A stretch of DNA of 64,000 nt from IMG/VR virus record IMGVR_UViG_3300033075_001021. One strand, given 5' to 3'. Both the position numbers and the translations under genes were made by a program. The number at the start of each line of letters is the position of its first letter. Position 1 is the first letter of the stretch. A model generated the notes under the pieces. The model worked only from the letters and a program-made list of their open reading frames with translations. It ran no database searches and was not told the DNA's origin. Origin of the DNA: a virus (taxonomy: Duplodnaviria; Caudoviricetes). This document shows positions 10,515-53,722 of the stretch, in pieces.

Positions 10515-10554
10515 ATGGGAGAAAAAAACAAATATATCGGTAATACTACCAGTT
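10515..10554 (+). pseudogene. Orphaned 5' end of the GT2 gene at 11289 (MGEK / TNISVILPV, one extra A)
   Basis: KTNISVILPV vs KTEISVILPV, 9/10 aa identical with 6 synonymous codon differences. Confidence 0.75.
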
Positions 10555-10593
10555 TTTTGTTAAAATGATATATTTATATATAAACAATCGATT

Positions 10594-11286
10594 ATGATTA
10601 TATATAAAACAACAAATCTTGTTAATGGTAAATTTTATATTGGTAAGGATGAAAAAAATAACCCGAATTATTTAGGTTCGGGTAAAATTTTAAAAATAGC
10701 GATTAAAAAGTATGGTACTGAAAATTTTAAGAAAGAAATTCTTGAAGAATGCAATAACAAAAAAGAACTAAATGAAAAAGAAAAATATTGGATAACCACT
10801 TTATCAGCAACAACTCTTGGATATAATATTGCAGAAGGTGGGACTGGTGGTAAAACAAAATTTAATACAACACATGTTTATCAATTTAATAAAAACGGTG
10901 ATTTTATAAAAGAATGGAATTCGGCAGCTGAGGTTGAAAGAACATTGGGTATTGACCAATCAGCGGTAATAAAAGCATGTAAAAGAAAATTGTTGAGTGT
11001 TAAGGGGTTTATGTGGTCATATGAAAATAATATAAAATCATTTTCTGATACAAGAAAAATTAAAATTTTACAATACGATAAAAATGGTTGTTTTATTAAA
11101 GAATGGGATTCAATTGTTGATGTTAAAAAAGCATATGTAATATGTGATAGACATATCCAATTAGTTCTTGATAAACCAAATAAAACAGCAAAAGGGTTTA
11201 TTTGGCTAAGAAAAAAAGAAAAGATAATAGATAAAATTGAGGTACCAAAATCTGGATATTTCAATAATAAAAATGCTAAAAAATAA
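10594..11286 (+). mobile_element. Free-standing GIY-YIG homing endonuclease with NUMOD1-like repeats
   Basis: IIYKTTNLVNGKFYIG, YLGSG, GYN; two VYQF.K.G.FIKEW.S repeats. Confidence 0.9.
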
Positions 11287-11288
11287 TT

Positions 11289-12098
11289 ATGGAAAAAGAA
11301 ATAAAAAAAACTGAAATTTCTGTGATACTACCCGTACACGACCTAAACGAAGAAACAAAACCAATGTTTCAAATTGCTGTAAAAAGCGTTGAACTACAAA
11401 AAGTTCAACCAGATGAATTGGTAATTGTTGTTCCGAAAGACAGCGAAGTTAGTAAATACGTGAAATCAATTGACTATGCTACCTTATCAGATAAAATAAC
11501 CATTGTTGAAAATGATGGTGCAACCGACTTCTGTTCACAAATGAATTTGGGTGTTAGTAAAGCTAAATCTGACTGGGTTTCATTATTGGAGTACGATGAC
11601 GAATATGCAAATATTTGGTTTAAGAATGTTGTCGAATATCGTGAAGCATACCCCAATTATGAAATTTTTATGCCAATCATTATTGACACTGATGCCGATG
11701 GTGGTTTTATTGGGCTTACCAATGAAGCAGTATGGGCACAGAGTTTTTCTGATGAGTTAGGTGTACTAGATTTAAATGCACTCCTTACATACCAAAACTT
11801 TAACATTGATGGTATGGTTATCAAAAAATCGTTATTCGAAGACTTTGGTGGATTTAAATCAAACATTAAATTAACATTCATTTATGAGTTTTTGTTAAGA
11901 ATGGCATTTAAGGATGTTAAGATTACAACAATCCCAAGATTTGGATATAAGCACGTTAACCAGAGGCCAAATTCATTATTTTCAAATTACAGAAATGAAA
12001 TGGACGCTGTCGAAGCAAAGTGGTGGCTAGCACAAGCTAAGAAAGAATACTATTTTGATAAAGATAGAAAAATAACATACATGAAACCAACGGTATAA
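11289..12098 (+). CDS. Family 2 glycosyltransferase
   Basis: ISVILPV N-terminus; LLEYDD. Confidence 0.82.
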   Translation: MEKEIKKTEISVILPVHDLNEETKPMFQIAVKSVELQKVQPDELVIVVPKDSEVSKYVKSIDYATLSDKITIVENDGATDFCSQMNLGVSKAKSDWVSLLEYDDEYANIWFKNVVEYREAYPNYEIFMPIIIDTDADGGFIGLTNEAVWAQSFSDELGVLDLNALLTYQNFNIDGMVIKKSLFEDFGGFKSNIKLTFIYEFLLRMAFKDVKITTIPRFGYKHVNQRPNSLFSNYRNEMDAVEAKWWLAQAKKEYYFDKDRKITYMKPTV

Positions 12099-12826
12099 TG
12101 ATTAACAAAAGAGGACGCAAAAGAAAGAATGAAATGTATTTTGGTCCCGATGAAGAAAAAGCCGTTAATGATTACCTAGCTTCGACAGATGACAAAGAAA
12201 GAAACATGATTTACAATCAGTGGTTAAAAGAACCACTTGATAAAATGATTGAGTCAATCATTAGAAGATATAAGTTATACAGAAAGGGTGAAAGCTTCGA
12301 GGATTTACATAGCGACACCCTTTCTTTTCTTATGACAAAAGCTCATAAATTTGAAAACGCAAGAGGTAAAAAGGCTTATTCTTATTATGGAACAATCTGT
12401 AAACACTATATTTTAGGACTTTTAATTAAGGACGAAAAATATACTAAACAAACTGCTTCATATGAAGATATATCGTCCGACCTAGAAGAACGTAAAGAAC
12501 TGAGTTACGTAATTGATAAAGATGAGATTGTGATGGATGAGTTTTTAAAAAAACTCGTCGACGGTATAAAGGAAGAACTTAACGATGAAAATCAACCAAC
12601 CAAAAAGAAACTCAACGAAAATGAAAGGAAGGTTGGGGAATCACTTATCGAAATTCTTCAAAATTGGGAAACAGCATTTAACACCATGGACGGTGGACCA
12701 AAATACAACAAAAACTCAGTTTTAGAAACCATGAGAAACTACACCAATTTGTCAACAAAAGACATCAGATTGGCAATGAGAAGGTTTAAAGACCTATATG
12801 AGTTCCTAAAACATCAAGATTTTTGA
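12098..12826 (+). CDS. Phage sigma factor, gp55-like (late transcription)
   Basis: Region-2-like F....GKKAYSYYGTICKHYIL; helical; lies just ahead of virion genes. Confidence 0.65.
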   Translation: MINKRGRKRKNEMYFGPDEEKAVNDYLASTDDKERNMIYNQWLKEPLDKMIESIIRRYKLYRKGESFEDLHSDTLSFLMTKAHKFENARGKKAYSYYGTICKHYILGLLIKDEKYTKQTASYEDISSDLEERKELSYVIDKDEIVMDEFLKKLVDGIKEELNDENQPTKKKLNENERKVGESLIEILQNWETAFNTMDGGPKYNKNSVLETMRNYTNLSTKDIRLAMRRFKDLYEFLKHQDF

Positions 12827-12868
12827 TAAAAAAATGCATTTAAAGGTATTTATAGTAAACTAATACTT

Positions 12869-13255
12869 ATGCCTAGAAAGAAAAAACAGGATGTTAAAGT
12901 CAATGACGTTGAAAGCCTTGAAGGGTTAATGCAAGAAACCTACAACGACGCATGTCTACAAATTAACGATGCTCAACGTACAATTAACGAATTGTCAACT
13001 AGCGCAACACCACAAGATGTTGAAGACGTTACAAAAATTGCAAAAGAAAAGGGTGGTCTTCTAAAGGTTAAAGATTCTGCTATCAGAATCAAACTTGAGC
13101 TAGCTAAATTGCAAAGCGACATCATTAAAAACAGAGGTGATGCAGAATCCGCTATTCAAGAAAGAACCGATGGTAAGGCATCATTAAGTGACTTTAAGTC
13201 AATCAGAGAAATGCTAATGAATGATAAAGACCTAAACGGTGCTGTTGAAGAATAA
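12869..13255 (+). CDS. Hypothetical coiled-coil protein
   Basis: 128 aa; TATTTAT motif upstream. Confidence 0.7.
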   Translation: MPRKKKQDVKVNDVESLEGLMQETYNDACLQINDAQRTINELSTSATPQDVEDVTKIAKEKGGLLKVKDSAIRIKLELAKLQSDIIKNRGDAESAIQERTDGKASLSDFKSIREMLMNDKDLNGAVEE

Positions 13256-14685
13256 TGGATATATTAAATCAAAAAAGGGAAATTTTTGGCAACATTGCCG
13301 CAGATAAAACTTTAACACAAGGACTTCCACAGTTAAAGACCACCTCTTCCATGCCATCAATCAATAACGATGGTGATTCAATTACATTACTATGCGATTT
13401 ACTTAAATCGCTTGTTGGTTCAGAAAAGATGGAAGAAATTGTTACGAACACACTAATATATAGTATCAATGACATTGAAAACGAAATCAAGAAAGAATTA
13501 AAACTTGAATTAAAATCAATTGTTAGTTGTGGCGTTAACCCATCATTACCAGATTATATAAAAACAACTGGTATCAAATTTCCAGTAAATAAGGTAGACT
13601 ATTTTGGTCTCATGTTTACAAACCCAAGGTCAATTGTTGGTCAACTCGTATATAACGATGTTACACCAACATTAATTGATAGCTCGGACTTCAATACATT
13701 TCTATACCAAACAATTCAATTAGATGGTCAAGCCGAAACATGGCCACAATATGCTGGCTCCACAACACCAATTTTAAATGTAAGATTTAGGTCCTTAGCC
13801 AGCGGCGGTGACCCAAACAATACTATCACCGTTAAATCAGCATCATCTTTTAACGGGACATTAACCGATTTTAATAATCAATTTATTGATAGTATTAAAA
13901 TATTTAACACCGAAAAAATAGTTTCACGGGTTATTGATTTAATATTTGGCACGGTATCAAAGAATTCAAATAAATCAATTAAACAATTAGAATTAGAAGA
14001 ACGAATTAATACTGTTATTAAAAAAATTATCTACACTGATTCTAATACAATCATTGATGATACAACATTCTCTTTCACCAACGACGAAAATAGGGCAAAT
14101 GAGTTTGCCGCAAATATGAGGAAAAAGGGTGAAAAACAATTTGAAACCTCAACCAAAGTTACTAGTAGTATTCCATTGAATTCGCTAACCACAATGAATA
14201 CAAATGTTGGTAGTGCCACAAATGAGATAATCAAAAAAGAAGAACTTACAAAATCATTAAAGTCAATGAGTGATAGTGTTGCATCAAGTGCAACCGAAAG
14301 CTCAGACCAGAAAAGTTTAAAACTCGGATTCATTCAAGAACTCATCAATTATCTAACACAGACAATTGTTATGGGTATCTTGGCACCAAAAATCATTACA
14401 ATTTTTTTAATCAATTTTAAGATTGTATACGGTCCGAATGCAACATTCAATGACCCGATTGATTTTTTAAGAAAGAATAAAAACCTAATAAGGGCTATAA
14501 CCAAAAGAGTAGCTGGGATAATAATAAGCGCATTACTAAGAGCCGTTTTAAAAGAAATAACAATTTTAGTTGCTGATGCAATTAAAAAAAGACTTGAAGA
14601 CAAAGCAAAGTTAAATTTAAAACAGCTTTTGAGTTTAGTTGGTGTGCCACAAGATGTGATACAAAAAATAAGGAACCTAGAATGA
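13255..14685 (+). CDS. Putative virion structural protein
   Basis: 476 aa, T/S/N-rich, in operon with the baseplate gene. Confidence 0.55.
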   Translation: MDILNQKREIFGNIAADKTLTQGLPQLKTTSSMPSINNDGDSITLLCDLLKSLVGSEKMEEIVTNTLIYSINDIENEIKKELKLELKSIVSCGVNPSLPDYIKTTGIKFPVNKVDYFGLMFTNPRSIVGQLVYNDVTPTLIDSSDFNTFLYQTIQLDGQAETWPQYAGSTTPILNVRFRSLASGGDPNNTITVKSASSFNGTLTDFNNQFIDSIKIFNTEKIVSRVIDLIFGTVSKNSNKSIKQLELEERINTVIKKIIYTDSNTIIDDTTFSFTNDENRANEFAANMRKKGEKQFETSTKVTSSIPLNSLTTMNTNVGSATNEIIKKEELTKSLKSMSDSVASSATESSDQKSLKLGFIQELINYLTQTIVMGILAPKIITIFLINFKIVYGPNATFNDPIDFLRKNKNLIRAITKRVAGIIISALLRAVLKEITILVADAIKKRLEDKAKLNLKQLLSLVGVPQDVIQKIRNLE

Positions 14686-15122: not shown

Positions 15123-15132
15123 TATTTTTATT

Positions 15133-15330: not shown

Positions 15331-15331
15331 T

Positions 15332-18622: not shown

Positions 18623-19510
18623 ATGAGACAAACAATCACTGGGCCAAGTGCGCCCATGGCTGCGATTTGTATTAACAAATCCAGACTAAAAACTTATCAC
18701 AAAGACAAAACCCCTACTTTCTACTTAGAGAAGGGTCAAGAATTTCAGATTGAATTATTCAATCCTACTTCAGACACAATTCTTGCTAAAATCCAATTAA
18801 ACGGTAATCAAATTTCACAAGGCGGTCTTGTACTTAGACCAGGTGAACGTGTATTCCTTGAACGTTATCTTGACGTGGCCAAAAAATTCAAATTCGACAC
18901 CTACGAAGTAGCTAACACAGCTGAAGTAAGGGAAGCGATTGAAGATAATGGTGACTTTAAGGTAGAATTTTACAGAGAATCAAGACCAGTATATTCATAT
19001 GGTTCTACAATTACTTTAAAAAACGATGTGCCATTTACCTACACTGACAACAATTCTACAGGATATAGAGGAATTAATCACACGTCACTTGGTACAACTG
19101 GAGGAAATCCACTTAATTTAACTGGGCTAAATGCGTCATTAAACGCAACACCAATTAGTTCATACTACAACACTGGTGGCGCAACATGCTATTCTTCAGA
19201 TGTTACGATGGATAGCTTTAATAGCGCATCACTAAGCGAACAAGCCGCACCAACCAAATCTTTAAGGTCTAGAAGTAAAACCATTGAAACTGGACGTGTA
19301 GAAGCTGGTAGCGGTTCAAATCAAAAATTGGAATATGTAAGCAAATCATTTGAATACTGGCCATTCCATACAGTTGAATATAAACTTTTACCTATTTCAC
19401 AAAAGGTAAATACTGTTGCTGACATCAACGTTAAAAGATACTGCACAAATTGTGGTAAAAAATCCGACAAAACAGATAAATTTTGTTCACAGTGTGGTAA
19501 TAAATTATAA
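18623..19510 (+). CDS. Hypothetical protein with C-terminal zinc ribbon
   Basis: CTNCG..FCSQCG. Confidence 0.8.
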   Translation: MRQTITGPSAPMAAICINKSRLKTYHKDKTPTFYLEKGQEFQIELFNPTSDTILAKIQLNGNQISQGGLVLRPGERVFLERYLDVAKKFKFDTYEVANTAEVREAIEDNGDFKVEFYRESRPVYSYGSTITLKNDVPFTYTDNNSTGYRGINHTSLGTTGGNPLNLTGLNASLNATPISSYYNTGGATCYSSDVTMDSFNSASLSEQAAPTKSLRSRSKTIETGRVEAGSGSNQKLEYVSKSFEYWPFHTVEYKLLPISQKVNTVADINVKRYCTNCGKKSDKTDKFCSQCGNKL

Positions 19511-20365
19511 AGATAAAAAATCTTTCCAACCTAACCAAACCCCTCTTCTTCTAAAATATGTTGAGGGGTTTTTTGGTATTCCAGTTGGTTTATTAAGTTT
19601 AATGTATTCTTTAAATGTTGTTGAATTTAAATTATACTTTGATAATATTTTTTTACATTCGTCATATGAGTAAAATATTTCGTTTTTAACCCTAGTATAT
19701 GTGTTACCTAAAAAATTATCCCATGAAACCCATCCATTATTTTTATATGTTAGTTGAGGATTAACGGGTAGATTATTAACCCTAGCATAAACGTACCAAT
19801 CTCTAATATTGTTAAATTTGTTTTTATGTGCTATCTTTTTTAAGACATTATATGAAATTGTATGTTTATTATTTTTAATGTTTTTTGTATTAAAAAAATC
19901 ACCCCATGAAACCCATCCATTATTTTTAAAAACACTGTCAGGTCTTTTTGGTATATTTAAATGACTATTTAATTTAAAATATTCCCGCCACTTTTTTTCA
20001 CTATCTATTTCTGGTATGTTATTCACTCTCCATTGTCTAACATCATCAAGTGTTAATTTGTACCTTTTACCAGAATGCCCATCCCCACCTTCAGATATAT
20101 TTGTCAGGTTATCAAATTGCCTAATCCAATATTTTTCTCTTTCGGCCCAACTATTTTCATCTGATTCTTCTAAAATTTGTATATTAATGGTACCACCACT
20201 ATTTAAAACTTTTCGAATCCAATTATTTTTATGTGTTATCACACCACGTTTAGCTGCTGATAAATGGTCATTTTTTCTAATTTTTGGTCTATAAGATTTT
20301 CCAACATATCTTATAACACCATCTTCTGCACATAACCCATAAATAAATATTTTATTTGTTTTCAT
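19505..20365 (-). mobile_element. Free-standing GIY-YIG homing endonuclease with GWVSWxxFL repeats
   Basis: FIYGL..IRYVGKS..R..H; REKYWI; three GW.SW..F repeats; own TATTTAT upstream. Confidence 0.85.
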
Positions 20366-20402
20366 AAAATTCTTTATAATAAATATGTGGTAATTAACAA
20401 AA

Positions 20403-20465
20403 AACTGTGGTGCCAAGCAAAAGCCAGAATTTAAATTCTGTCCTAGTTGCGGCGCTAAAGCATAA
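20403..20465 (+). pseudogene. Orphaned 3' end (zinc ribbon) of gene 18623
   Basis: NCGAKQKPEFKFCPSCGAKA* vs NCGKKSDKTDKFCSQCGNKL*, same length, 10/20 identical. Confidence 0.85.
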
Positions 20466-20476
20466 ATAATAAACTA

Positions 20477-20490
20477 GAGTTAACGTAATA
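20477..20490. repeat. Right arm of 14-bp long-range inverted repeat
   Basis: GAGTTAACGTAATA. Confidence 0.85.
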
Positions 20491-20518
20491 AAAAAAGGTG
20501 GAATCTTCCACCTTTTTT
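20491..20518. terminator. Bidirectional intrinsic terminator
   Basis: AAAAAAGGTGGAA-TC-TTCCACCTTTTTT between convergent units. Confidence 0.85.
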
Positions 20519-21443: not shown

Positions 21444-21629
21444 ATGAACAAAATCATTAAAGAAAATGATGAAAAATATTTCATCACTTGTGGTGACTGT
21501 AACACTCATTTTGAATATACTATAACAGATGTTAAACCATTTACTGGATGGGTATTAGGTAAAATATCTGATTATGTTATATGTCCAAAGTGCAATAAAC
21601 AAGTAGACCACATTAAGGGCAAAATTTAG
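21444..21629 (+). CDS. Small zinc-binding protein
   Basis: CGDC...CPKC. Confidence 0.6.
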   Translation: MNKIIKENDEKYFITCGDCNTHFEYTITDVKPFTGWVLGKISDYVICPKCNKQVDHIKGKI

Positions 21630-22299
21630 ACCCTTTAGAAAGATTATCTGGCCACCATAGTGGTTGCAGATTATTCAACGCCCAACAAGCTTTAAACTCT
21701 GGGTCATCAGGACTTTCGAATTTAAAGCTTGACATTGGGCGAATATGGTCTACATGCCATTGACCATAATTATCCCATGTCATCCCATCAACAAATTGTT
21801 TTTCCAAGTGCTGCATTAATTCCTCTATTGTATAACCAAGTAATTCAAATGTAGAACGATATTTAGCAACATTAGCTTCTTTAAGACATGTATAAACGGC
21901 TGTTCTTGTTCTAGCTGCTAATCTATATTTTGGGTCCTCAGCACGACGCTTACGTTCGTATTCACGTTTGTATATATTTACATGTTCTTTATTCTTTTTA
22001 CGCCATTCAGTATGTTTTTCACGTAAATACCCCCTATTTTCATTAGCCCATTCTTTATATGATTTACTAATTTCTTTTTTATTTTTACTATAATAACGTT
22101 TATTGGCCTCACTTTTACCACCAATATTACGTCTTCCTGATGTATTAAATATAACGCCATTTTCTCTAAGTGTTCTAATTATAATAGTTTTATGAATACC
22201 CATATGTTTACTTATTGTTGTACAACCCAATAAGTTTTCATTATACATTCTTAAGCATTCATCTATTTGTTCTTTTGTTAATTCGATTTTCTTACTCAT
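21613..22299 (-). mobile_element. HNH-type free-standing endonuclease
   Basis: GMTWDNYGQWHVDHIRP..NLQPLW..DNLSKG; N-terminal HTH and charged helix. Confidence 0.8.
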
Positions 22300-41070: not shown

Positions 41071-41445
41071 TTAATTTGAAAGTGGCGCTTTGATTGCTGG
41101 TTGTGATTGATAACATATCGTAATAATTAACCCTCTACTAACATTAAGTTCTCTTGCAACGGATGCCGACGTTAATTTTAATTTACTTACTAACATTTTA
41201 TCAACTATTAAATCAGAATTTTTTTCTCTATATCTATATAACATCCATTGTAATTCAAAAAATATAGAACCCCAATTAATGGTACCATCGTTGTTAATAG
41301 GTGTTCTTAATTTTAATGTTTTTCCAATAAACTCTTCGGAAATTCTTATGTCAGGGATTGCTTGTGAAAAATAAACAAAGTCATCATTAATTTTCTTACA
41401 ATAATCCCTATCCTCGGTTTCAGTAAATTGATTAATATCTATCAT
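41071..41445 (-). CDS. Hypothetical protein ending in a copy of the ThyA C-terminus
   Basis: YQSQPAIKAPLSN* vs ThyA YQSHPPIKAPLSN*; 21 identical nt. Confidence 0.7.
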   Translation of the reverse strand: MIDINQFTETEDRDYCKKINDDFVYFSQAIPDIRISEEFIGKTLKLRTPINNDGTINWGSIFFELQWMLYRYREKNSDLIVDKMLVSKLKLTSASVARELNVSRGLIITICYQSQPAIKAPLSN

Positions 41446-41449: not shown

Positions 41450-42184
41450 TTAATTTGAAAGTGGCGCTTTAATTGGTGGGTGGGATTGATAGTTTTCTAA
41501 TTGAAAATCAAACACGTTATAACAAGATATATCAGTTGGTAAAATATCTTTACATGGATTATGCAATATGTTTAATGTGGGTAACTCAAGAGATACTCTA
41601 GTAATCTGCTCCTTAGCCTGCTCAATATGATTTGAATACAAATGCACATCACCTAAACTACCAATTAGTTCATCTGGAATCATATTCACTTCCTTAGCAA
41701 TAATCTCTAACAACAAACCATAACTTGCTATATTGAAAGGTAAACCAAGAAATGTATCTACTGAGCGTTGGTTCCACATTAGAGAGATTGCTCTGGTTGG
41801 AATGTTATCATCATTTAATGATTTTTTCAATGAGTCCATTTCATCACTGTATCCTCCAAATGTAGAATAAAATTGTTCCCAATCATTTCTAAAGTTCCCT
41901 CTCTTACAACGTATTTCATATCTTTCCCATAATTTCAATTCTCTTGTATAAACTTGAAATCCATAATGACAGGGTGGGAGAACCATTTGGTCTATTTCAC
42001 CTACATTCCAAGCATTAACCATTAACCTACGGCTATCTGGATTTGTTTTGAGTTCGGAGATTAAGTTTGCTATTTGGTCAATACCTTTATTACCGAACTC
42101 ATTATTAAATTCTTTGTCTGTTTTCAATTTTTGTAAAAACTCTTCTTTTGTAAATGGGGTTCCGTCTTCGTGTTTATATTTCAT
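41450..42184 (-). CDS. thyA: Thymidylate synthase, C-terminal half
   Basis: IDQI, PDSRR, LPPCH, QRSVDTFLGLPFN, DVHLYSNH. Confidence 0.93.
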   Translation of the reverse strand: MKYKHEDGTPFTKEEFLQKLKTDKEFNNEFGNKGIDQIANLISELKTNPDSRRLMVNAWNVGEIDQMVLPPCHYGFQVYTRELKLWERYEIRCKRGNFRNDWEQFYSTFGGYSDEMDSLKKSLNDDNIPTRAISLMWNQRSVDTFLGLPFNIASYGLLLEIIAKEVNMIPDELIGSLGDVHLYSNHIEQAKEQITRVSLELPTLNILHNPCKDILPTDISCYNVFDFQLENYQSHPPIKAPLSN

Positions 42185-42456
42185 AACTTTATTTTTCTTT
42201 CTAATGTTGCTGGTTTTCCAGAAATGATTAAGTTCTTTTTTATACCCTCAAAAATTGTAATATCATCATAAGGACTTATAATATATATTATTTCAGTTTT
42301 ATCTTTATTTAATCCCACAGTTAAAGTCTGGTAAGGATGATATGAGTCATAAAATATATCAACTCCGTCAACTACACCTAATTTAACAATACCTTCCCAT
42401 TTCTTGTCGGGTTTAATAAATTCTGGCCCATTACAATCATACTTACTGTCTATCAT
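42181..42456 (-). CDS. Small protein with similarity to a gp23 C-terminal segment
   Basis: GI..LG...G....D.Y.P.....VG....YI..PY pattern. Confidence 0.55.
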   Translation of the reverse strand: MIDSKYDCNGPEFIKPDKKWEGIVKLGVVDGVDIFYDSYHPYQTLTVGLNKDKTEIIYIISPYDDITIFEGIKKNLIISGKPATLERKIKL

Positions 42457-42460
42457 ATAC

Positions 42461-43153
42461 TCAATTTATATAAAACCAATTTTTATATTTTTCTTTATGT
42501 TTCTCTGACCGACCCCTACCTTGTAATATCCATCTAACAGAAAATTCATTCATATTAATAAAGTCCGCAGCCGCTTTAGCGGATTCAAATTCAACACCAT
42601 CTATTGAACATCTCTTGTTTGATGTTGAAGGTAGTTTTTTTCCTTCATATTTTTTTAACTTATCGGTGTTTGCTTTATTTGATATATTTGAACCATTAAA
42701 TCTACCTTTTAACCATCCCCCCTCAACAATTTTCGGGTCATTGGGGAATGCTCGTAGATTTGTTCCGTCAGGTTTATGATACCATTTAGAACCCTTTATC
42801 TTTTCTCTACTAGCGTTTATCTGTGATTCCGATGGTTTGAACTTTTGCCATATTTCTAACATTTTATGTTTAGCATATTCATATACCCTTGAAGATGGTT
42901 TATATCTTTGTTGATTATCTGAATTACGGCACATTGACCAAAAGGCGTACCTTAAATCACTATTTTCTGGATACATTTCATGTAATAACCAATGAATTAA
43001 AAAATGTTCTCTCGCAGTTAAATCCACTAAATTATTTGGTTTATTAGTTCCATTCATACATTTTGGTATAATGTGATGTTTTTCAACATATCCTTCTAAC
43101 TTTCTGTTTTTTGCTCTCTCAATAAGGTCGTCGTGTATTTTTTTGTAGTCCAT
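42461..43153 (-). mobile_element. MobE-like HNH homing endonuclease
   Basis: YKKIHDDLIERAKNR..GYVEKHHIIPKCMNG..NLVDLTAREHFLIHWLL. Confidence 0.9.
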
Positions 43154-43201
43154 AATTACCATTGTTTACTATACATAAATATGGTAATAAATGGAAAAAT
43201 A

Positions 43202-43744
43202 CTACTTATCTTTAACTTTTTTCAAATAATCTTCATAAAGCTCATCATCAGATTTACCATTCCAATTACGCCAACCAGCCCCATACACGGGGCCTAGTTC
43301 ACCCCACTTCTTTGCAAACTCATCATCGGTTTTAATTTTATCAATAAATTCTTCCATTGTAAATTGACCATCTAGTTCAAAGGCAGATAAACCGTTTATT
43401 TCAGTTGGTTGAACTGATTTGATTTTAAAATCATGTGGGTTAGACGAAAACTGTGATTTGTTTAAATAATTCTTATAAGCATCTCCATTCCAAATATGAC
43501 ATTCATCTTCAATTAGTGATTTTATATTGGTGTCACCACGAAGAAACCAAAGCAATTCAGCTACGATACCCTTGAAGTACATTTTTTTGGTTGTAAGCAA
43601 AGGAAACCCATCTTGCATGTTATGACGAATTTGCCAACCAAAAATTGATTTGGTTCCAGTTCCAGTACGGTCTTTCTTACCGTCACCAAAACGAATAATA
43701 AAATCAAGTAATTCTCGATATTGTCTGTCTAAGTTATTTGCCAT
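43202..43744 (-). CDS. thyA: Thymidylate synthase, N-terminal half
   Basis: DRTGTGT, FPLLTTKK, ELLWFLRGDTN, LGPVYG..WRNW. Confidence 0.93.
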   Translation of the reverse strand: MANNLDRQYRELLDFIIRFGDGKKDRTGTGTKSIFGWQIRHNMQDGFPLLTTKKMYFKGIVAELLWFLRGDTNIKSLIEDECHIWNGDAYKNYLNKSQFSSNPHDFKIKSVQPTEINGLSAFELDGQFTMEEFIDKIKTDDEFAKKWGELGPVYGAGWRNWNGKSDDELYEDYLKKVKDK

Positions 43745-43881: not shown

Positions 43882-44121
43882 TTATTCGTATTCATAGTCA
43901 ATGTTATTTTTGTATATCCACAAATGATTGTAAAGATTAAAAATTGTTAATTCAATTTGAAATGCTGGAGTATGTTCACCTAAAAACCTATCAAAATTAA
44001 TCTTAAATTCAAAAAAGGTAAATCCGTCAGAAAGCTTTCGTATTGGGGCAAATAGTTGTATTTCCCAAAGTAATTTCTTTTTTTTCCATAAGGTACCAAA
44101 CAATACAAGTCCGATATTCAT
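43882..44121 (-). CDS. Hypothetical protein
   Basis: 79 aa; start overlaps the stop of the orphan stub (ATGA). Confidence 0.55.
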   Translation of the reverse strand: MNIGLVLFGTLWKKKKLLWEIQLFAPIRKLSDGFTFFEFKINFDRFLGEHTPAFQIELTIFNLYNHLWIYKNNIDYEYE

Positions 44122-44198
44122 ATCTTAACAATTTTACAAGGTTTATTATACTTTTCACAAAGAGAAATGCTATGTTGTGTTCCACGTGAAATACCATT
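44118..44198 (-). pseudogene. Orphaned 3' end of the SLOG/YspA-like gene
   Basis: NGISRGTQHSISLCEKYNKPCKIVKI* vs DQKSKGTLHSINLAKELKKPIRIITF*. Confidence 0.82.
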
Positions 44199-44767
44199 TA
44201 TTTTATAATATTTTTATCTTTTAAATTAAGATATACTGAGCTAATCCAATGTATAAATTCATCGTGATGGTATTTGTTTTTGATGAAATTACATTTTGAA
44301 CAACATGGAACGACATTATCTAAATAATACCCTTTTTCGTTATCTAATCTGTCAATACCATTAAACTTATAAGGTCCATTTAATTTTTGTTTTTTAAACT
44401 CAAAAATAGGTTCAGTTCCGCAATAATAACAATCGGATTCAAAGATTTTAATCATCTCCTCATCGGTTAGATTAAAACTGATTCCTTTAAATTTTGCATT
44501 ATGCCTATAATTGTAAATCAATGCGTTTCGATTAGCTATTCCAAATGCTTTTCTCCTTTTTGCCCCGTAATCAATTTCTTTTTTTATACAACCACAACTT
44601 TTAGTATGGTTATTAACTACTTTAGATGCTTCTACTATTACTATATTTCCACAATCACATTGACACTTATATTTTTTTCTTTTATAAGAAGCTTTTGGCA
44701 TTACTTCAATAATCAATAATTTATTAAATTTTTTTCCGATTAATTCATCTTTCTTATTTTGTTCCAT
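44198..44767 (-). mobile_element. Free-standing HNH homing endonuclease
   Basis: CQCDCG..TKSCGC N-terminal module; CYYCG..GIDRLDN..GY..NVVPCC..CN..K. Confidence 0.88.
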
Positions 44768-44801: not shown

Positions 44802-45143
44802 CTAAAAGGTTATAATTCGTATCGGTTTTTTTAATTCTTTAGCTAAATTAATTGAATGTAATGTCCCTTTTGATTTTTGGTCCCAAAATGCAATTACATA
44901 ATCAGCATTTTTGATGATATCTTCATTACGTATAAAGCCAGCTGATTTACCATATTTGTCCCATTCAGGTAGAAAGATAAGAGTATCTATGCCGTGTCTT
45001 TCAGCCCACTGTTCACCCATCTTATCAGCACCTTTGGCACCACCTGACACAACCAATTCGATTTGAAAAATCAATGGGTTCAATGTTTCATTTAATAAAT
45101 CAATGTCATTGAACCCACGACTCCCAATAATGGCTAATTTCAT
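44802..45143 (-). CDS. SLOG-family (YspA/DUF2493-like) protein
   Basis: IIGSRGF, VSGGAKGAD, GKSAGFIRN, AFWD.KSKGT. Confidence 0.85.
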   Translation of the reverse strand: MKLAIIGSRGFNDIDLLNETLNPLIFQIELVVSGGAKGADKMGEQWAERHGIDTLIFLPEWDKYGKSAGFIRNEDIIKNADYVIAFWDQKSKGTLHSINLAKELKKPIRIITF

Positions 45144-46169: not shown

Positions 46170-48683
46170 ATGAACCGTGAAATTTACCCAAAAGTCAAAA
46201 TTATCATCAATAAGGCAATGCAAGAAGCAAAAAACCTAGATGATATTAAAATAAGACCTGAACACATAACACTATCTATACTAAATGATGATAATGAATG
46301 TGTTGATGCTCTTAGGAATTTAAAAGTTGATACAACAGAAGTAGTGGAGAAAATTATTGACTTTCTTAGAAAGGCCGACTTAACACCAAGAGTATCACAA
46401 AGCAAAAGAGTTAGATTACCATTTTCAGATGAATCGAAAGAAATTATCAAAACTCTTGATAAAGAATGTGAAGCTATGAATGATAAGATGATTAACTTAG
46501 CACATCTTATGTTAGCAATATTAGCACATCGAACACCAGCAACTAAAATATTTTCAGAGTTCGGTGTAACATATAACAGTTTTAAAAAAACAATCATGGA
46601 AGACAACAACATCAAAAATGACAGAATCGACGACGATTTTAATGACGAATTTCCAGAAGAACAAGAACGCTTCAGAAGAATGAAAAAGAAAAACGAATCC
46701 ACCAAAACACCCGTTTTAGATAATTTTTGTCGGGACATTTCTAAAGCTGTTGAAAAAGGAACCATTGACCCTGTCGTTGGTCGTGAAAAAGAAATCAAAC
46801 GCATTTCACAAATCCTTTCAAGAAGAAAGAAAAATAACCCAGTATTGATTGGTGAACCAGGCGTTGGTAAAACATCTATCGTTGAAGGTCTAGCCCAATT
46901 AATTAAAGACGGAAATGCACCAAGAACAATTGCCAATAAAAAAGTTTATAGTTTAGATTTAGCTGCAATTGTTGCTGGTACAAAATATCGTGGACAGTTT
47001 GAAGAAAGGATGAAAGCTATCCTTGAAGAATGTAAAGGAAACCCAGACGTAATCCTTTTTATTGATGAATTACACACTATTATTGGTGCTGGTAACGCTT
47101 CTGGTTCATTGGATGCATCCAATATCTTTAAACCAGCATTAGCACGTGGAGAAATTCAAATCATTGGTGCGACAACCTTGGATGAATATCGTGAACACAT
47201 CGAAAAAGATGGTGCCCTTACCAGAAGGTTTCAACAAGTTCTTGTTGAAGAACCAACACTTGAAGAGACAAAAATCATCTTAAAAAACATCAAAGACAAA
47301 TATGAAAAACACCACAAGGTTCATTATACCGATGAAGCTATTGAAGAGTGTGTTAAATTGTCTGACAGATATATCATGGAACGTTCAATGCCAGATAAAG
47401 CAATTGATGTGTTGGATGAAGCTGGCGCTGCAACAAATGTAAGCCTTGAAAAACCACAATCTGTCAAAGACCTTGAACTTAAAAAAATCGAAATCCTCAA
47501 TAGAAAGAAAGAAGTTATCAGCAAACAAAAATATGAAGAAGCTGCTAAACTAAGGGATGAAGGTGCTAAGATTGATGAACAACTCTCAAACGCACTAAAA
47601 GATTGGAGTGCAAGGCTTGAAAAGAAAGTCACCACTGTTGGTGTTGAACAAATTTCTGAAGTGGTATCAATGATGACTGGTATCCCTCTAACCAAAATTT
47701 CAACCCAAGAAAGCAAACGCTTGATGAACCTTGATAAAGAACTAATGGGTCGGGTTATAGGCCAAGATGACGCTGTTACAAAAGTCGTTAAAGCAATCAA
47801 GAGAAGTCGTATTGGTATCAAAGATAAAAACAAACCCATAGGTTCATTCATTTTCTTAGGTCCAACTGGTGTGGGTAAAACCTATCTTGCAAAACTTCTT
47901 GCCGAACATGTTTTTGGTGATGAAGACGCACTTGTTAGAATCGATATGACTGAGTTCATGGAAAAACATACAATATCAAGATTAATTGGCGCACCTCCAG
48001 GTTATGTTGGTTATGAACAAGCTGGTCAATTGACTGAAAAAATTAGAAGAAAACCACACAGCGTTGTATTGTTTGATGAAATTGAAAAAGCACACGAAGA
48101 TGTTTTCAATATCCTTCTTCAAATAATGGATGAAGGTCACATAACCGATGGCCAAGGTAGAAAAGTAAACTTTAAAAACACTTTAATTATCCTAACCTCA
48201 AACGTCGGTGTTAAAGAACTTAGTCAATTCGGTACAAGTGTAGGTTTCCAAACATCCACTTCTTCAACCAATGAAGATGAAAGGGCAAAAACAATTATTG
48301 AAAAAGCACTCAAGAAAAAGTTTAAACCAGAATTCTTAAACCGTATCGATGAATCAATAATCTTTAACGGACTTAAAATGGAAGACATTCAAAAAATCAT
48401 CCACAAAGAAATTGAGAAACTTGAAGCGCGTATTGGTGAAGTTGGTTACAAAATTAAATTGAATAAAGCCGCTATTGAATTCTTAGCCAAAGAAGGTTAC
48501 GATGAAGAGTATGGCGCTAGACCATTGGCAAGAACCATTCAACGTTATGTCGAGGACCCCGTCGCCGACGAAATACTAAGCGGAAATGTTAAAGATGGCG
48601 ATGTAATCAAAATCATCTTTGATAAGACCAAAAATGAGATTGTCGTCAAATCAGATAAGACAGCCAAAGTCGAAGAAGAATAA
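46170..48683 (+). CDS. clpC: ClpC-like Hsp100 AAA+ ATPase
   Basis: Clp N-domain; GEPGVGKT and GPTGVGKT; UVR-like YEEAAKLRD; GYVG pore loop; VGF loop. Confidence 0.9.
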
Positions 48684-48687
48684 AGAT

Positions 48688-48710
48688 AAACCCCACTTTT
48701 TGTGGGGTTT
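48688..48710 (+). terminator. Intrinsic terminator
   Basis: AAACCCCAC-TTTTT-GTGGGGTTT. Confidence 0.7.
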
Positions 48711-48726
48711 GTTATATTTATGAGAT

Positions 48727-49128: not shown

Positions 49129-50000
49129 TGAAAGAAGCGTTATTACAGAAAGCAAAAGAACTGGTTAACACAAGACCAATCAAAGGATATTCGGCTAAAC
49201 CACTTAAGGATGCTGCCAATACCGATATGACGTTATTTGCTCAGTATCTTTTAAACATTGCGGAACAAGCTATGGACCCAGCAAGCTTAAAAGCAACCAT
49301 TGAAACTTATACCAAAGATTTAGTTGACATAGCACGATTATTTGCTAAGGAAAATCATGCGCTTAATGAGGAAAAAATAAAGGGTGGTAAAGCAGATAAT
49401 TTATCAATTGATGATATCGCAAAAAAGTTTGACATCAATCCATCTAAAATTAGAAAAGAATTAGTCATGGGGGTGGAAGTTGAATTAGAACATACAGATA
49501 GCAGAACAACGGCCAAGGAAATTGCAATGGACCATTTATCTGAAATTCCAGATTATTACACCAGATTAAAAAAGATGGAAAAAGACGGAAGTAAGAAATG
49601 GACAACAGAATCAACTGTATTAATTAAGAAATTATTACATGAGGGGTTAAAATACAACGCCGCATCAACTTTGCTACTTGACTTTGGTTTTTTAATTTCA
49701 AATAATTTTAGTCAAATAACAAAAATGGGTAAAGATGCAACAGCAACCAAAGAATTAAATCTTATGATGCAGAACCTAAGAAAACCAATCATAAACGGTC
49801 AAAACTATTTTGAAATCACTAAAGATGTTAATTCAGTAATAAGAAATCCAAAAATGTTATCAGCTGTTCTAGGAAAAATAAGAGAGTTTTTAATATATAT
49901 TGAACCTAGAATACAAAAATTTGTTATTGATAATGAATTTAAAAAACATTGGTTGGAAAAAATCAATGGATTAAAATCCCTATATAGAAGTATAATTTAA
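49128..50000 (+). CDS. Multi-module protein containing a DUF5661-like segment
   Basis: GVEVELEHT..AKEIAMDHL.E.PDYYTRL. Confidence 0.65.
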   Translation: MKEALLQKAKELVNTRPIKGYSAKPLKDAANTDMTLFAQYLLNIAEQAMDPASLKATIETYTKDLVDIARLFAKENHALNEEKIKGGKADNLSIDDIAKKFDINPSKIRKELVMGVEVELEHTDSRTTAKEIAMDHLSEIPDYYTRLKKMEKDGSKKWTTESTVLIKKLLHEGLKYNAASTLLLDFGFLISNNFSQITKMGKDATATKELNLMMQNLRKPIINGQNYFEITKDVNSVIRNPKMLSAVLGKIREFLIYIEPRIQKFVIDNEFKKHWLEKINGLKSLYRSII

Positions 50001-50153
50001 ACCAATATATTCGTGACTAAAACATATACGTTTGTTATCAGCATAATGAGCATTGTAAACATTTTTATGTGTCACATCCTTTCTTAATTTTTTATTCTTG
50101 CTTGTTGGTTTCCATAAAGGCGAATGTTCACGGTAATAACCCATACGTGGATG
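49980..50153 (-). pseudogene. Orphaned 3' end of the GNAT gene
   Basis: 40/51 aa identical to the region starting HPRM in 50884..51045; no start codon. Confidence 0.92.
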
Positions 50154-50193
50154 CTTTTACTACTTTTCCACATATTTATTAATAAATTGCAAT

Positions 50194-50910
50194 ATGCCGA
50201 GAAGATTAACAACGCAACAATTCATTGAAAGGGCCAATAAAATTCATAATAACAAGTACGACTATTCAAAAACTAAATTTGTTAATAGTAAAACTAAAGT
50301 TATTATTATTTGCCCAATACATGGGGAATTTGAACAGTTTCATAACAAACATCTATCTAAAAAGGGATGCCCAAAATGCGGTTTTATATCAAGATGTAAC
50401 TTAGCAAGAAGTACTTCACATGATTTTATTACCAAAGCGATAAAAATTCATGGTGATAAATATAATTACGATAATGTTATTTATACAGGTAAAGAAAATA
50501 AAGTAACAATAATTTGTGAAAAACACGGAAGCTTTAATCAAACACCACATAATCATTTAGCTGGAAATGGTTGCCCACATTGTAGAGAATCAAAAGGTGA
50601 ACGTGAAATAAAACAATTTTTAATTGAAAATAATATTAAGTTTATACCACAAAAAAGGTTTAAAGATTGTCGTCACATATTACCACTACCTTTTGATTTC
50701 TATCTTCCTGAATATAATATGTGTATTGAATATCATGGTATACAACATTTTAAACCGAGAAGTAAATTTGGTGGTGAAATTGAATTTAAGAAAGTTGTTT
50801 TAAGAGATAAAATAAAAGTTGAATATTGTATAAAAAATAAAATAAAACTTAATATCATAAAATATAATGACAATCTTTTAGAATTACTTACATCCTATGT
50901 ACTCAAATGA
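50194..50910 (+). mobile_element. Homing endonuclease, DUF723-like zinc repeats plus EDxHD/Vsr-like nuclease
   Basis: Two IH..KY.Y..IIC..HG.F.Q..HL..GCP.C repeats; SKGE; LPFDFYLP..IEYHG.QH. Confidence 0.85.
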
Positions 50911-51363
50911 ACCACAAACCCTTTTATTATCTCCATAGTGATTGTTATAAATATTTTTATGTGTTATGTCTGTTCTTAATTTCTTATGTTTACTAGTTGG
51001 TTTCCACAAAGGTGAGTGTTCTCTATACCAAATCATGCGTGGGTGGGCCGTTCTAGAAAAGTAACGTAACCCCTGTTCTAAGTGAATCTGACCTATTGCA
51101 TCAGAAAACCTTACCCCAATACCCATTCCTTGAAAATCTGGCAAAATAACGGTCCTATGACCCCTCCAAGCGTTTTTCATGTTACCATTAGGTAAAGCAA
51201 GACTGGCACAAAACGCAACAACCTCATCATTCCAAACACCAACATAACATCTTGCGGCCTTATTGATATCTCCACTCAAATAATGATGGTCTTTAAACAT
51301 GGGCCAGATATGATGGCTTGCTGGATAAATCTCAATTTTGATTTCTGGACGGGCAAAAAAAAA
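50884..51363 (-). CDS. GNAT acetyltransferase domain, -1 frame continuation of the ABC ATPase
   Basis: RPEIKIEIY..W.MFKDHHYL; RTVILPDFQGMGIG. Confidence 0.8.
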   Translation of the reverse strand, partial: FFFARPEIKIEIYPASHHIWPMFKDHHYLSGDINKAARCYVGVWNDEVVAFCASLALPNGNMKNAWRGHRTVILPDFQGMGIGVRFSDAIGQIHLEQGLRYFSRTAHPRMIWYREHSPLWKPTSKHKKLRTDITHKNIYNNHYGDNKRVCGSFEYIGCK

Positions 51364-51953
51364 CCTTGGTGAAATTCACCAGTATCAGTGTCAATAACCC
51401 AATCTGGTTCCAACCATTCTAAGATATCACGATGACAAGTTGCTAATACAACATTATTGATATCGTTGTTTTTAATGTAACGTGATAATGATACACTAGC
51501 AGCCTTAGCAACGTTTCTATCAACGACACTACTAAATTCATCAATTACAGCATTTGATTCTAATTTACGAGCAACATCAGCCCTAAACTTTTCACCATTA
51601 GATAATACCTCGTATGGCTTATACCAAGAAGGAATCGTATTTAAACCGACAGCGCCCATTTTATTGATGGCTTCATCTGGTGATTCAAAATGTGAAATGA
51701 TTGGCAAATGATTGGACCAGATTGGTTTTTCTTCTTGACCAAAGTTTTTTAATAACGTTGATTTACCAGAACCACTTGAACCAACAATTACGCCTATCTT
51801 AAATTCTTTTGGGAGATTGATAGGAAGTTCCCATGGATAAAACTTTGACGTACCATCAAAAATACAATCAAAGGCTTTCTCACTAGCCTCAATAAATTTG
51901 TCTTTCTGGACAGTAGATGTTAAAGGAATGTTTGATTTGATGAGTTTTTCCAT
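51276..51953 (-). CDS. ABC-type ATPase domain
   Basis: GSSGSGKST, LSNGEKFR, IDEFSSVVDR, TCH. Confidence 0.87.
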   Translation of the reverse strand: MEKLIKSNIPLTSTVQKDKFIEASEKAFDCIFDGTSKFYPWELPINLPKEFKIGVIVGSSGSGKSTLLKNFGQEEKPIWSNHLPIISHFESPDEAINKMGAVGLNTIPSWYKPYEVLSNGEKFRADVARKLESNAVIDEFSSVVDRNVAKAASVSLSRYIKNNDINNVVLATCHRDILEWLEPDWVIDTDTGEFHQGFFLPVQKSKLRFIQQAIISGPCLKTIII

Positions 51954-52064
51954 GCAAATAATATATGCATGAATTGTAAAAAAATAAATGGTAAGTATGG
52001 AAAATACAAAGCTAGAGCGCATATTTCTTACGCTCTAGCCCATATTTTGTTCATCCAGAATGGA

Positions 52065-52265
52065 TTACTTAGATTTTGTTAATTTGTTAACTTTAGCTTC
52101 TAAAGCAGCAATTTTTTGTTCAAGAATCGCACTTTTGTTACCTTTAGATGCTTGTTCAGCTAACCATTCTTTCTTTTTGATGCTAACTGCTTCGCTAACG
52201 ATGTTATCGATTAAGTCGACCAAATCACCTTCAGAAATTTTAACTGTTTTCTTTACGTTTGACAT
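52065..52265 (-). CDS. Small coiled-coil protein
   Basis: KKTVKISE..L..I..IVSE N-terminus; hairpin downstream at about 52011..52039. Confidence 0.6.
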   Translation of the reverse strand: MSNVKKTVKISEGDLVDLIDNIVSEAVSIKKKEWLAEQASKGNKSAILEQKIAALEAKVNKLTKSK

Positions 52266-52349
52266 GTTCAATAGATTTTAAGAATTTTTTATCTTACTAA
52301 TAAATATGGGATTTTTTAGAAAAAGATAAAAAATTCTTATAACCCATTA

Positions 52350-52394
52350 TTAATGAGCGTATTTGTCACCACCATAGCTTGCTGCCCAAGCATC
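52350..52394 (-). pseudogene. Orphaned 3' end of the YkuK-like gene
   Basis: DAWAASYGGDKYAH* vs ESWAASYGGDRYCH*. Confidence 0.88.
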
Positions 52395-53160
52395 ACCTAA
52401 ATTTACAATTTTCAAAATGCCATCGCTTACCGTTTCCGATATCAACAACTTTATTACAGTATGGACATCTTGTTTTTGGTTGTTCTTTACCTTTATTATG
52501 TGCTTCCTTTCCTTTATTTGGATGTACATTTAAACGATAATATTCTTTTAATTTTTCAGATTGAATTTTATTTAATTCTGGGTTATTTTGTCTAATTTTC
52601 TTTTGTGTTTGCGATATTCTTTTCTTTTCTTCTTCTGATTTCGGCCCTGTTGAAACACCCTTATTCCACGCAGTTTGTTTTCCCTTAACACCTTTATTCC
52701 AAGGCACCCTACCCACAGATGGATGTTTAGTTTTTTTATACTTTTCTTTTAATGATATAGATATTTTTTGTTTTATTTCATTTGTTGGTGTATATGGTTT
52801 ACCATGATATATGACTTCACCGTTTTTATACCGTTCTTTTAATGTTTCTGAAATTTTAGTTTTAGAATCTTTTGATAATATACCATTACTCTGACCCCCA
52901 GTTTTTAGATTGTAGGTATCCTCACGATTAACCCAATTTTCGGTTACATATTCTTTTTCTTCCTGAAGTAATTCTTCTAATGAATTACAATATTTTAATA
53001 TTTCACGTTTAAAATTTTCCTTTCCGTATTTTTTTAACGCTCTTTTAAAAGCTAATCCGCTACCTAAATACCCGTCATCCAAGTTTTTAGTTTGATGAAT
53101 TCCAATGTAAACCTTATTGTTAATTAAGTTAGTCGTCTTGTACAAAATAAAATACTGCAT
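52393..53160 (-). mobile_element. Free-standing GIY-YIG (Seg-like) homing endonuclease
   Basis: ILYKTTNLINNKVYIGIH, YLGSG, YN; NUMOD3-like K.KIS and WNKG repeats. Confidence 0.9.
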
Positions 53161-53212
53161 ACTATTATTTTTAATAATAAATATGCAGCATCTTATAATG
53201 AGGATAAAAAAA

Positions 53213-53722
53213 TTAATGACAGTAACGGTCTCCCCCATATGAGGCGGCCCAACTTTCGGGCTTAATTTTGAACTCATATCCCATACCAAGTATGTAACCA
53301 ACAGCGTGGCTAAGAGCCTTGTTAGACTCCCACCTTGGGTCTGGATTAATGTCGGCGTGTATTTCCATCTTAACACCGTACTTTTCAAGGACAGGAGAAA
53401 TTTCGTATGCTACTTCAATAGACTTACCTACTTCCATAATCATTCTTTCATTAACACCTTCCTTGTCCTTCTTGAAGGTATTCATGTGGTAAGTAGCAGA
53501 GATTATCTTACCACCTCTACCCACAGATACACCATCGCCAAGATTCTCCCTAACAGTAATCAATATTACTGTCGCAAACTTATATCCTCTACCACTCCTT
53601 TGAGAGTCAGTACCTACGGAAATCCTTAATTCATGATTAAGGGCCATTTCTTCTTGAATCAAGTTGTCAAGATAATCGTTAATTGGCATGTCAATTTTTT
53701 TGCCAGCTCTTTCCCACTTCAT
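53213..53722 (-). CDS. RNase H-like YkuK-family protein
   Basis: VGTDSQ, EVGKS, EIHADIN, KP.SWAAS..D. Confidence 0.82.
   Translation of the reverse strand: MKWERAGKKIDMPINDYLDNLIQEEMALNHELRISVGTDSQRSGRGYKFATVILITVRENLGDGVSVGRGGKIISATYHMNTFKKDKEGVNERMIMEVGKSIEVAYEISPVLEKYGVKMEIHADINPDPRWESNKALSHAVGYILGMGYEFKIKPESWAASYGGDRYCH

Follow-up and report, generated by a model that had tools for sequence, protein, structure and literature searches.

Mobile endonuclease open reading frames (ORFs) with C-terminal duplications have been described in fungal mitochondria, in atp6 of Allomyces macrogynus and in atp6, atp9, cox2 and nad3 of Glomus sp. (PMC3630166). In T4-like phages, mobA and the gene 60 bypass make up a cassette that interrupts the topoisomerase gene (Bonocora et al. 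2011, cited in bioRxiv 10.1101/2022.08.31.505936), MobE splits nrdA in Aeromonas phage Aeh1 (reviewed in PMC2988022), and gene 43 of phage 25 is reported to be split (PMC3045599). The free-standing Seg and Mob endonucleases of T-even phages carry out intronless homing (PMC2988022), and PMC2677866 reports that genes in environmental phage-like DNA can be fractured, with split inteins and a free-standing endonuclease gene. A 2010 review of mobile DNA in T4 describes split genes, and the words 'duplication' and 'duplicated' are absent from it (PMC2988022); a 2023 survey of nucleases at exchange boundaries makes no mention of orphan gene ends (PMC10448857). In the phage literature we found almost no account of such splicing-free invasion, and no paper describing the replacement of gene termini with orphan stubs. 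Here we analyze a stretch of 64,000 nucleotides (nt) from an uncultured phage (IMG/VR record IMGVR_UViG_3300033075_001021), called the window below, in which six nuclease genes adjoin or interrupt phage genes. Each of them is very probably a homing endonuclease gene of the free-standing kind, with its home site inside the host coding sequence, carried in a cassette that keeps the host gene working by replacing the interrupted segment, usually the terminus.

The duplications were recovered by a six-frame self-search and by targeted local alignments. Five nuclease genes are each flanked by an intact host gene on one side and, on the other, by an orphan copy of that gene's terminus. This arrangement had been proposed in an earlier note made from the letters of the window alone, and every instance was confirmed: four concern 3' ends (cases A to D) and one a 5' end (case E). 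A sixth duplication named there, at 41071 (case F), is also real, and all six arrangements exist at or near the positions given. To these six we add a seventh (case G), where another HNH gene interrupts td in its middle. Below, the copy that completes the intact gene is called the resident or replacement end, and the orphan copy is called the stub. As a null, 4,920 control comparisons paired C-terminal 25-mers with 150-nt segments drawn at random from the window. The maximum local score of the null was 38, while the observed stubs scored 56, 57 and 68; the duplications are therefore far beyond chance and statistically secure. Related loci from IMG/VR (L001 and so on) were used for comparative tests. 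In nuclease-free relatives the gene is single and uninterrupted, and the stub and the resident copy align to identical bases of it. The nuclease genes of cases A, B, D and E show presence/absence polymorphism among otherwise collinear relatives. It had been proposed that nuclease-free relatives would end in the stub; their genes do end stub-like at the stub position in cases B, D and E, and in case A a tree supports the same. The outcome favors the proposal wherever close relatives exist.

Case D concerns a gene for a zinc-ribbon protein.

18623-19510, plus strand: zinc-ribbon protein gene; its replacement 3' end, 19269-19510, is the left part of a transferred block
19505-20365, minus strand: GIY-YIG homing endonuclease (Pfam GIY-YIG), convergent with the host gene; CATATTTAT at 20379-20387
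20403-20465, plus strand: stub, the native zinc-ribbon end with its stop codon (local score 56)

Window positions 19269-20493 form a block of 1,228 bp that is 95.6% identical to L117, while its flanks are 75% and 80% identical. It spans 240 nt at the 3' end of the host gene, together with the GIY-YIG gene and the stub. The zinc-ribbon proteins of the window and L117 are 67% identical overall, and 39 of their last 40 residues are identical; the two GIY-YIG proteins share 96.8% amino acid identity. A block of such identity in a background of 75-80% indicates that the cassette moved recently as a unit. Because the stub lies within the block, it was co-converted as the right-hand homology flank and is more than a relic. 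In the nuclease-free relatives L118, L140 and L119, 17 of the 20 residues compared at the gene end are shared with the stub and 9 with the resident end. A downstream convergent gene lies about 50-60 nt past the stop codon of the stub, and at about the same distance from the stop codon in these relatives. The nuclease is present in L117 and L126 and absent from the other relatives compared, and the Pfam GIY-YIG match is the sole family support for this gene. L117 does not have the case E cassette, so cassettes come and go singly.

Case A involves a GNAT gene and a nuclease of another family.

50884-51300, minus strand: intact GNAT gene; replacement end 50884-51045; nuclease-linked clade, 'MIW..KH' allele class
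50194-50910, plus strand: nuclease; zinc-finger repeats (DUF723, DUF4379), Vsr/EDxHD-like domain at the C-terminus (Pfam; PHROGs 559, 9084 and 7140)
49980-50153, minus strand: stub, the orphaned native GNAT 3' end, with 51 aligned codons, a tail and a stop codon

The nuclease gene is antisense to GNAT, with CATATTTAT at 50171-50179, and the stub overlaps the end of a convergent DUF5661 gene. PHROGs 559, 9084 and 7140 are described as homing or intron-encoded nucleases. A search against PDB gave no sequence match for this nuclease, and its fold is putatively Vsr/EDxHD-like by motif and PHROG names. The two GNAT copies share 78% amino acid and 69% nucleotide identity over 51 codons (tblastn E 1e-24; stub match 50001-50153). 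The stub retains an ORF of 54 codons with an ATG start, and the stub at the end of ORF124 (case F) is translated within that ORF, so the description of the stubs as untranslated goes too far. The description of the copies as similar in protein and diverged in codons holds for GNAT: the proportion of synonymous differences (pS) between them is 0.94, which is saturated, the proportion of nonsynonymous differences (pN) is 0.17, and identity at third positions is 45%. Both copies were under purifying selection for most of their separation, and their divergence predates the junction; saturated pS with low pN means that two functional allele lineages were joined, rather than that one copy decayed in place. 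The shorter pairs of stub and resident end show the same tendency, with little statistical weight.

To place these ends in a tree, the 153-nt end segment of GNAT was taken from 76 loci and from the window. Twelve of the 76 loci have an adjacent nuclease, and 64 have neither a nuclease nor a stub. The resident end of the window falls in a clade (SH-aLRT 96) together with L002/L003, L005, L012 and the middle copy of L022. This clade has no nuclease-free member, and all its members directly adjoin homologues of the window's nuclease (such homologues lie at the same position in L002, L003, L004, L005, L012, L022 and L068). This clade and the block in case D bear out the proposal that the replacement end and the nuclease form one mobile unit. 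The stub of the window groups with other stubs and with nuclease-free alleles, and in L068 and L072 the stub is likewise paired with a nuclease-free allele, with support of 97 and 99. For these two loci, the nearest nuclease-free relative was chosen by the untouched N-terminal part of GNAT; their stubs have 0.98 and 0.96 amino acid identity to the end of that relative, and their resident ends 0.61 and 0.78. In the window, stub and resident copy align to identical bases of L001 (4191-4343). No tract of high identity was seen around the case A nuclease, the best relative being 79% identical throughout. The residues at the junction differ between the two kinds of end. Nine of the 12 nuclease-adjacent GNAT ends read I..H, five of them 'MIW..KH', while 'MG[YF]..KN' is found in 9 of 13 duplicate copies lying 3' of a GNAT gene and in 39 of 66 nuclease-free alleles. 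Since these fixed differences sit at the junction, they are the obvious candidate for what determines target recognition as against immunity.

Two further layouts were seen at GNAT. L022 is nested (4001-6482), with a full GNAT gene, a nuclease of a second type, an 86-codon GNAT copy, a nuclease of the window type and a 51-codon stub; two nuclease lineages thus hit two sites in GNAT, near codons 52 and 86, one after the other. L024 and L025 have no nuclease, yet a duplicate of 17-20 codons of the GNAT end lies about 40 nt past the stop codon (4447-4506), which may be the scar of a lost cassette.

Case B concerns an RNaseH-like gene and case C a YAcAr/SLOG gene.

53213-53722, minus strand: intact RNaseH-like gene (PF04308); replacement end at about 53213-53257
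52393-53160, minus strand: case B GIY-YIG homing endonuclease (Pfam; PHROG 314, E 5e-43); CATATTTAT at 53177-53185
52350-52394, minus strand: case B stub, the native end of the RNaseH-like gene including its stop codon; overlaps the 3' end of the nuclease gene by its last codons
44802-45143, minus strand: intact YAcAr/SLOG gene (Pfam PF10686); replacement end at about 44802-44873
44198-44767, minus strand: case C HNH (endonuclease VII-like) homing endonuclease (PHROGs 1035, 374 and 3118)
44118-44189, minus strand: case C stub, the native YAcAr/SLOG C-terminus with its stop codon, about 23 codons (local score 57)

The copies in case B are short, with 10 of 14 codons identical in the protein (stub copy 52353-52394), and have a local score of 68. 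The nuclease is missing from all 20 related loci, where the gene order is unchanged. In L099, the closest relative and nuclease-free, 13 of the 14 terminal residues agree with the stub and 10 with the resident end. A single 30-nt stretch of L099 (3468-3497) aligns with both copies, and the alignment continues from the stub into the common downstream region. In case C, the YAcAr/SLOG protein is full length against 16 homologues, and the C-termini of homologues (L105) are closer to the stub (about 17 of 23) than to the resident end (11 of 23). The HNH gene has ATATTTAT 24 nt 5' of its ATG, and the relatives found for it are all distant.

Case E is the 5' version, at a GT2 glycosyltransferase gene.

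10515-10572, plus strand: stub, the native GT2 5' end with a 1-nt frameshift (A7 instead of A6)
10594-11286, plus strand: GIY-YIG homing endonuclease (Pfam GIY-YIG and NUMOD1; PHROG 314); ATATTTAT at 10570
11289-12098, plus strand: intact GT2 gene; its replacement 5' end, 11289-11345, begins 2 nt after the nuclease stop codon

The stub begins 4 nt after the stop codon of the upstream gene. With one A removed it reads as the N-terminus of the L166 GT2 protein, and it is collinear with the nuclease-free L147 and L166. In L147, which is 81% identical and has no nuclease, the upstream gene runs directly into the GT2 gene, and both the stub and the resident start align to L147 3002-3034. The nuclease is absent in most of 80 relatives, and L180 has one that is 64% identical. 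An exact-match scan of metagenome contigs for the predicted stub without the frameshift gave no match.

In cases G and F the affected gene is td, encoding thymidylate synthase.

43202-43744, minus strand: td N-fragment of 180 residues, ending in a novel 16-residue tail
42461-43162, minus strand: case G nuclease gene within td, of the HNH family (PHROG 655 'homing endonuclease', E 2e-45); CATATTTAT at 43175-43183
42181-42456, minus strand: ORF91, a small ORF between the HNH gene and the td C-fragment
41450-42184, minus strand: td C-fragment of 244 residues (thymidylate synthase matches in Pfam and PDB), with an N-terminal extension at 42089-42184
41071-41445, minus strand: ORF124, whose last 13 codons (41071-41112) are the td C-terminus, in frame

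Most of 80 related td genes are uninterrupted, and L228-L231 are split at the same place. The HNH protein at the split is 83% identical in L228 and 86% in L231, and a 36%-identical HNH is present in L229 and L230. The 32-residue extension of the C-fragment holds a truncated, 54%-identical copy of residues 128-151 of the N-fragment, and it hardly varies among L228-L231, including the two contigs whose HNH is 36% identical. Positions 42453-43348 are 86% identical to L231, the remainder about 75%; the raised identity covers the HNH gene and the last ~150 nt (~50 codons) of the N-fragment. By inspection of translations and PDB alignments, the usual motifs of thymidylate synthase appear intact in the two-fragment enzyme, which is only consistent with function. 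Judged by its layout, the td split follows the plan of MobA and MobE and not the plan of the terminal stubs. ORF91 is a 267-nt insertion exactly between the stop codon of the HNH gene and the start of the C-fragment and is absent in L228 and L231. Its stop codon overlaps the ATG of the C-fragment, and it has no family match in Pfam or PHROGs.

At the other end of td, the last 13 codons (41450-41491), which encode a conserved C-terminus, recur at the end of ORF124 (41071-41112) with 35 of 39 nt identical. At 90% nucleotide identity, this pair is the exception in the divergence pattern of the copies. ORF124 has no family assignment, and the protein atlas gave just sub-threshold helix-turn-helix leads; no relatives of it were found in IMG/VR. 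A homologue from another sample, P0002, is 83% identical and has a partly decayed td tail at its end.

The six nucleases thus comprise three GIY-YIG proteins (Pfam; PHROG 314 for two of them), two HNH proteins (PHROGs 655, 1035 and 374) and one Vsr-like protein. The motif (C)ATATTTAT lies 20-24 nt 5' of all six nuclease ATGs. It had been proposed that each endonuclease has a TATTTAT motif of its own, and such a motif is indeed present before each nuclease ATG, but it is not specific to nucleases. There are 35 copies of ATATTTAT in the window (for example at 7503, 16304, 26556, 28492, 33745, 39360, 39633 and 58151), and about half sit 12-25 nt before an ORF start, typically 20-25 nt before the ATG, with a strand bias that follows gene orientation. 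ATATTTAT is thus a general promoter-like element of the phage and a candidate promoter class. It differs from TATAAATA, the late promoter of T4. The nine-letter form of the motif occurs 8 times against 2.3 expected, and 4 of the 8 precede nucleases. The window contains two more nuclease genes, and a search of the ends of their neighboring genes found no duplicated copy or stub. One, an endonuclease VII/HNH-like gene at 21613-22299 (PHROG 1035), directly follows the gene for the major capsid protein. L124 and L140 have it and L119-L122 lack it, as would be usual for a free-standing homing endonuclease gene of the intergenic type, which it resembles. The other is an HNH endonuclease gene at 58652-59227 (PHROG 5200) with a lysine-rich tail.

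The following mechanism would account for these arrangements. The cassette, of 750-950 bp, consists of the nuclease gene, a phage promoter-like motif and a substitute copy of the host segment that it cuts off, and the substitute segment comes from a different, functional allele lineage of the same host gene. The rebuilt gene is intact and differs from the native allele in DNA and in a few residues beside the junction. When a cassette-free phage takes part in a mixed infection, its native allele would, we infer, be cut by the nuclease and the resident allele spared, and double-strand-break repair would copy the cassette from the donor. The gene body would serve as the left homology arm, and the orphan stub with the downstream DNA as the right arm, which would explain why the stub is inside the high-identity block of case D. 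When the insertion is near a gene end, the displaced native piece would be left as a non-functional stub, as proposed for cases A to E. When it is in mid-gene, the displaced part must be expressed as a second polypeptide, and a split gene with tails would result, as in case G. Case F would be the same kind of duplication around a gene of no assigned family. As for the first origin, a nuclease gene just beyond a gene end probably homed into a diverged lineage without matching downstream DNA, and repair on the unmatched side would then have been completed illegitimately, in a one-sided manner.

We also lean, by a narrow step, towards a broader reading, in which several nuclease families enter phage coding sequences by terminus replacement as a third general route, in addition to introns and inteins. 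According to this reading, cassettes would target one natural allele class and carry a resistant class along. Protein termini would continually be swapped between phage lineages, and landing in mid-gene would produce split genes. If so, orphan stubs would be a readable record of the target site of each nuclease.

Some observations weigh against terminus replacement or fail to support it. The window's GNAT end is 0.78 identical in amino acids to that of its closest nuclease-free relative, L001, and the stub is 0.76 identical, which does not discriminate; the support for case A comes from the tree and from the other loci. L021, a nuclease-free relative of L014 and L016, has a resident-type GNAT end, so either 'immune' alleles occur without a nuclease or the nuclease was lost. 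Case C has no syntenic or close relative among the IMG/VR relatives, and case F has no recognizable nuclease and copies that are 90% identical, so that a local duplication explains it equally well; for both cases the evidence comes mainly from within the window. A duplication in place could be supposed for the other cases too: an illegitimate insertion would have copied the target stretch, the copies would have diverged there, and the stub would be the product of neutral decay. The 35 of 39 identical nt at the td end and the ORF124 tail fit a recent local duplication, and the frameshift in the case E stub means that some decay happened on site. As a general account, however, this is improbable. 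Synonymous saturation with a pN of 0.17 in GNAT is unexpected if one copy drifted freely, and at the protein level the stubs hardly differ from the gene ends of relatives without a nuclease. Furthermore, the resident GNAT ends beside window-type nucleases form one clade although they are in different phages, and the resident end of case D has 39 of 40 residues in common with L117, in genes that are otherwise 67% identical.

Splicing would give the stubs another meaning, as the true last exon or extein that is joined by RNA or protein splicing. Homing endonucleases of phages often reside in group I introns, and td is a classic intron host in T4. The td split here is not at the T4 intron site: the motif interrupted there is intact in the td C-fragment. 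Genuine inteins do occur in this neighborhood: L009 (252-2021), and also L010, has an in-frame LAGLIDADG intein in the P-loop of the neighboring ABC-type ATPase gene, with Cys as its first residue, His-Asn as its last two and Ser directly after it. One gene neighborhood has thus been invaded by an intein, a split gene and a terminus replacement in different phages. At the loci of the window, however, splicing is extremely improbable, in agreement with the exclusion of introns and inteins in the earlier note. No Rfam intron family was found in the 64 kb, either at the gathering threshold or at E<=1, and the gaps of 4-50 nt are too small for a ribozyme core. The resident genes are full length with ends that match those of homologues, and are complete without splicing. 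All six nucleases have start and stop codons and a promoter-like motif of their own, and two of them (cases A and D) are antisense to the host gene. We therefore rejected both a group I intron-borne endonuclease and an intein. Split inteins were rejected for td, as its 16- and 32-residue tails are without Cys/Ser or His-Asn junction residues. It is just as improbable that an assembler joined two strain variants of a gene end around an accessory gene. The window comes from an uncultured phage, and no isolate genome matches it, but the layouts recur in independent assemblies from different samples, that of GNAT in L002, L003, L011, L012, L014, L016, L022, L068 and L072, that of case D in L117 and that of td in L228-L231, and L022 has the nested double case. 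A terminus-replacing cassette remains by far the best explanation of cases A to E.

The phage itself is T4-like, as its genes for a major capsid protein of T4 type (PF07068), for a prohead protease, for a polynucleotide kinase and for an RNA ligase show. It is AT-rich, with a G+C of 30-39%. A megablast search for near-identity with the window in the isolate-phage collection gave no match. The best matches of the major capsid protein in that collection are 38-42% identical over about half of its length, and include an uncultured phage, a Microcystis phage and Flavobacterium phages. In IMG/VR there are many relatives, with protein identities of 55-87%. No near-identical cassette-free strain was found. 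One protein of the window was found on a 289 kb contig, so the genome is probably of jumbo size. The window also has two genes that are unusual cargo in a T4-like phage: a full-length ClpB-like double AAA+ chaperone of 837 residues (46170-48683) and a leucine-rich-repeat protein of 473 residues (53972-55393).

These results suggest that phage homing endonucleases can invade ORFs without splicing machinery by supplying a spare gene end. The density is high, with six cassettes of three nuclease families in 43 kb of one genome. Terminus replacement would explain in concrete terms how mosaic boundaries arise within phage genes and how protein termini come to be exchanged. For annotation, orphan gene ends may account for short 'hypothetical' ORFs and odd intergenic stretches beside nuclease genes. 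Each stub also points to where an uncharacterized nuclease probably has its target, and the gene body joined to the stub predicts the cleavage substrate, which would be useful in finding new sequence-specific nucleases. The split td would be the third enzyme in a small set of endonuclease-split genes.

Among the T-even Seg and Mob systems there are likewise free-standing GIY-YIG or HNH genes with presence/absence polymorphism. In those systems flanking markers are co-converted and the allele of the carrier is a resistant variant (PMC2988022), and by analogy the resident alleles here may be resistant. The classical Seg and Mob cases lie between genes and, unlike the cases here, have no duplicated gene piece. 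MobA is closer in one respect, as its HNH cassette lies within an ORF with neither an intron nor an intein, and its 'homR', a target-homologous region that has the nick site, is diverged and protects the carrier (bioRxiv 10.1101/2022.08.31.505936). According to the same account, MobA adds new C- and N-terminal extensions to the split topoisomerase, and the td/HNH case has the same plan. The difference is that there is no translational bypass here, and that in the five terminal cases the gene is unsplit and the native segment persists as a stub. As with MobE and gene 43, the mid-gene insertion in td gives two polypeptides with element-derived tails that must reassemble; here, the gene is td, the site is another one, and reassembly is predicted. 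The fractured genes reported in PMC2677866 are also in two pieces around a free-standing homing endonuclease gene, but the td tails are not split inteins.

The closest likeness is to the fungal mitochondrial genes of PMC3630166. There, too, a foreign C-terminus is in phase with the gene and is followed by the endonuclease ORF and then the native C-terminus. The native copy resembles that of close relatives, and the inserted copy is similar in protein and diverged in DNA. Several genes per genome are affected there as well, by nucleases of the LAGLIDADG and GIY-YIG families. The novelty claimed in the earlier note was therefore too strong, since several genes and two nuclease families were already known in one fungal mitochondrial genome. 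The cases here differ in that the host is a phage, that the nucleases are GIY-YIG, HNH and Vsr-like, and that each nuclease has its own promoter-like motif and start codon, with two of them antisense to the host gene. In addition, there is a 5'-end version, and dozens of related genomes provide population evidence. In summary, the principle is already known, and what is new is a phage host system, the occurrence of both 5' and 3' versions, the density of the cassettes and the diversity of the nuclease families.

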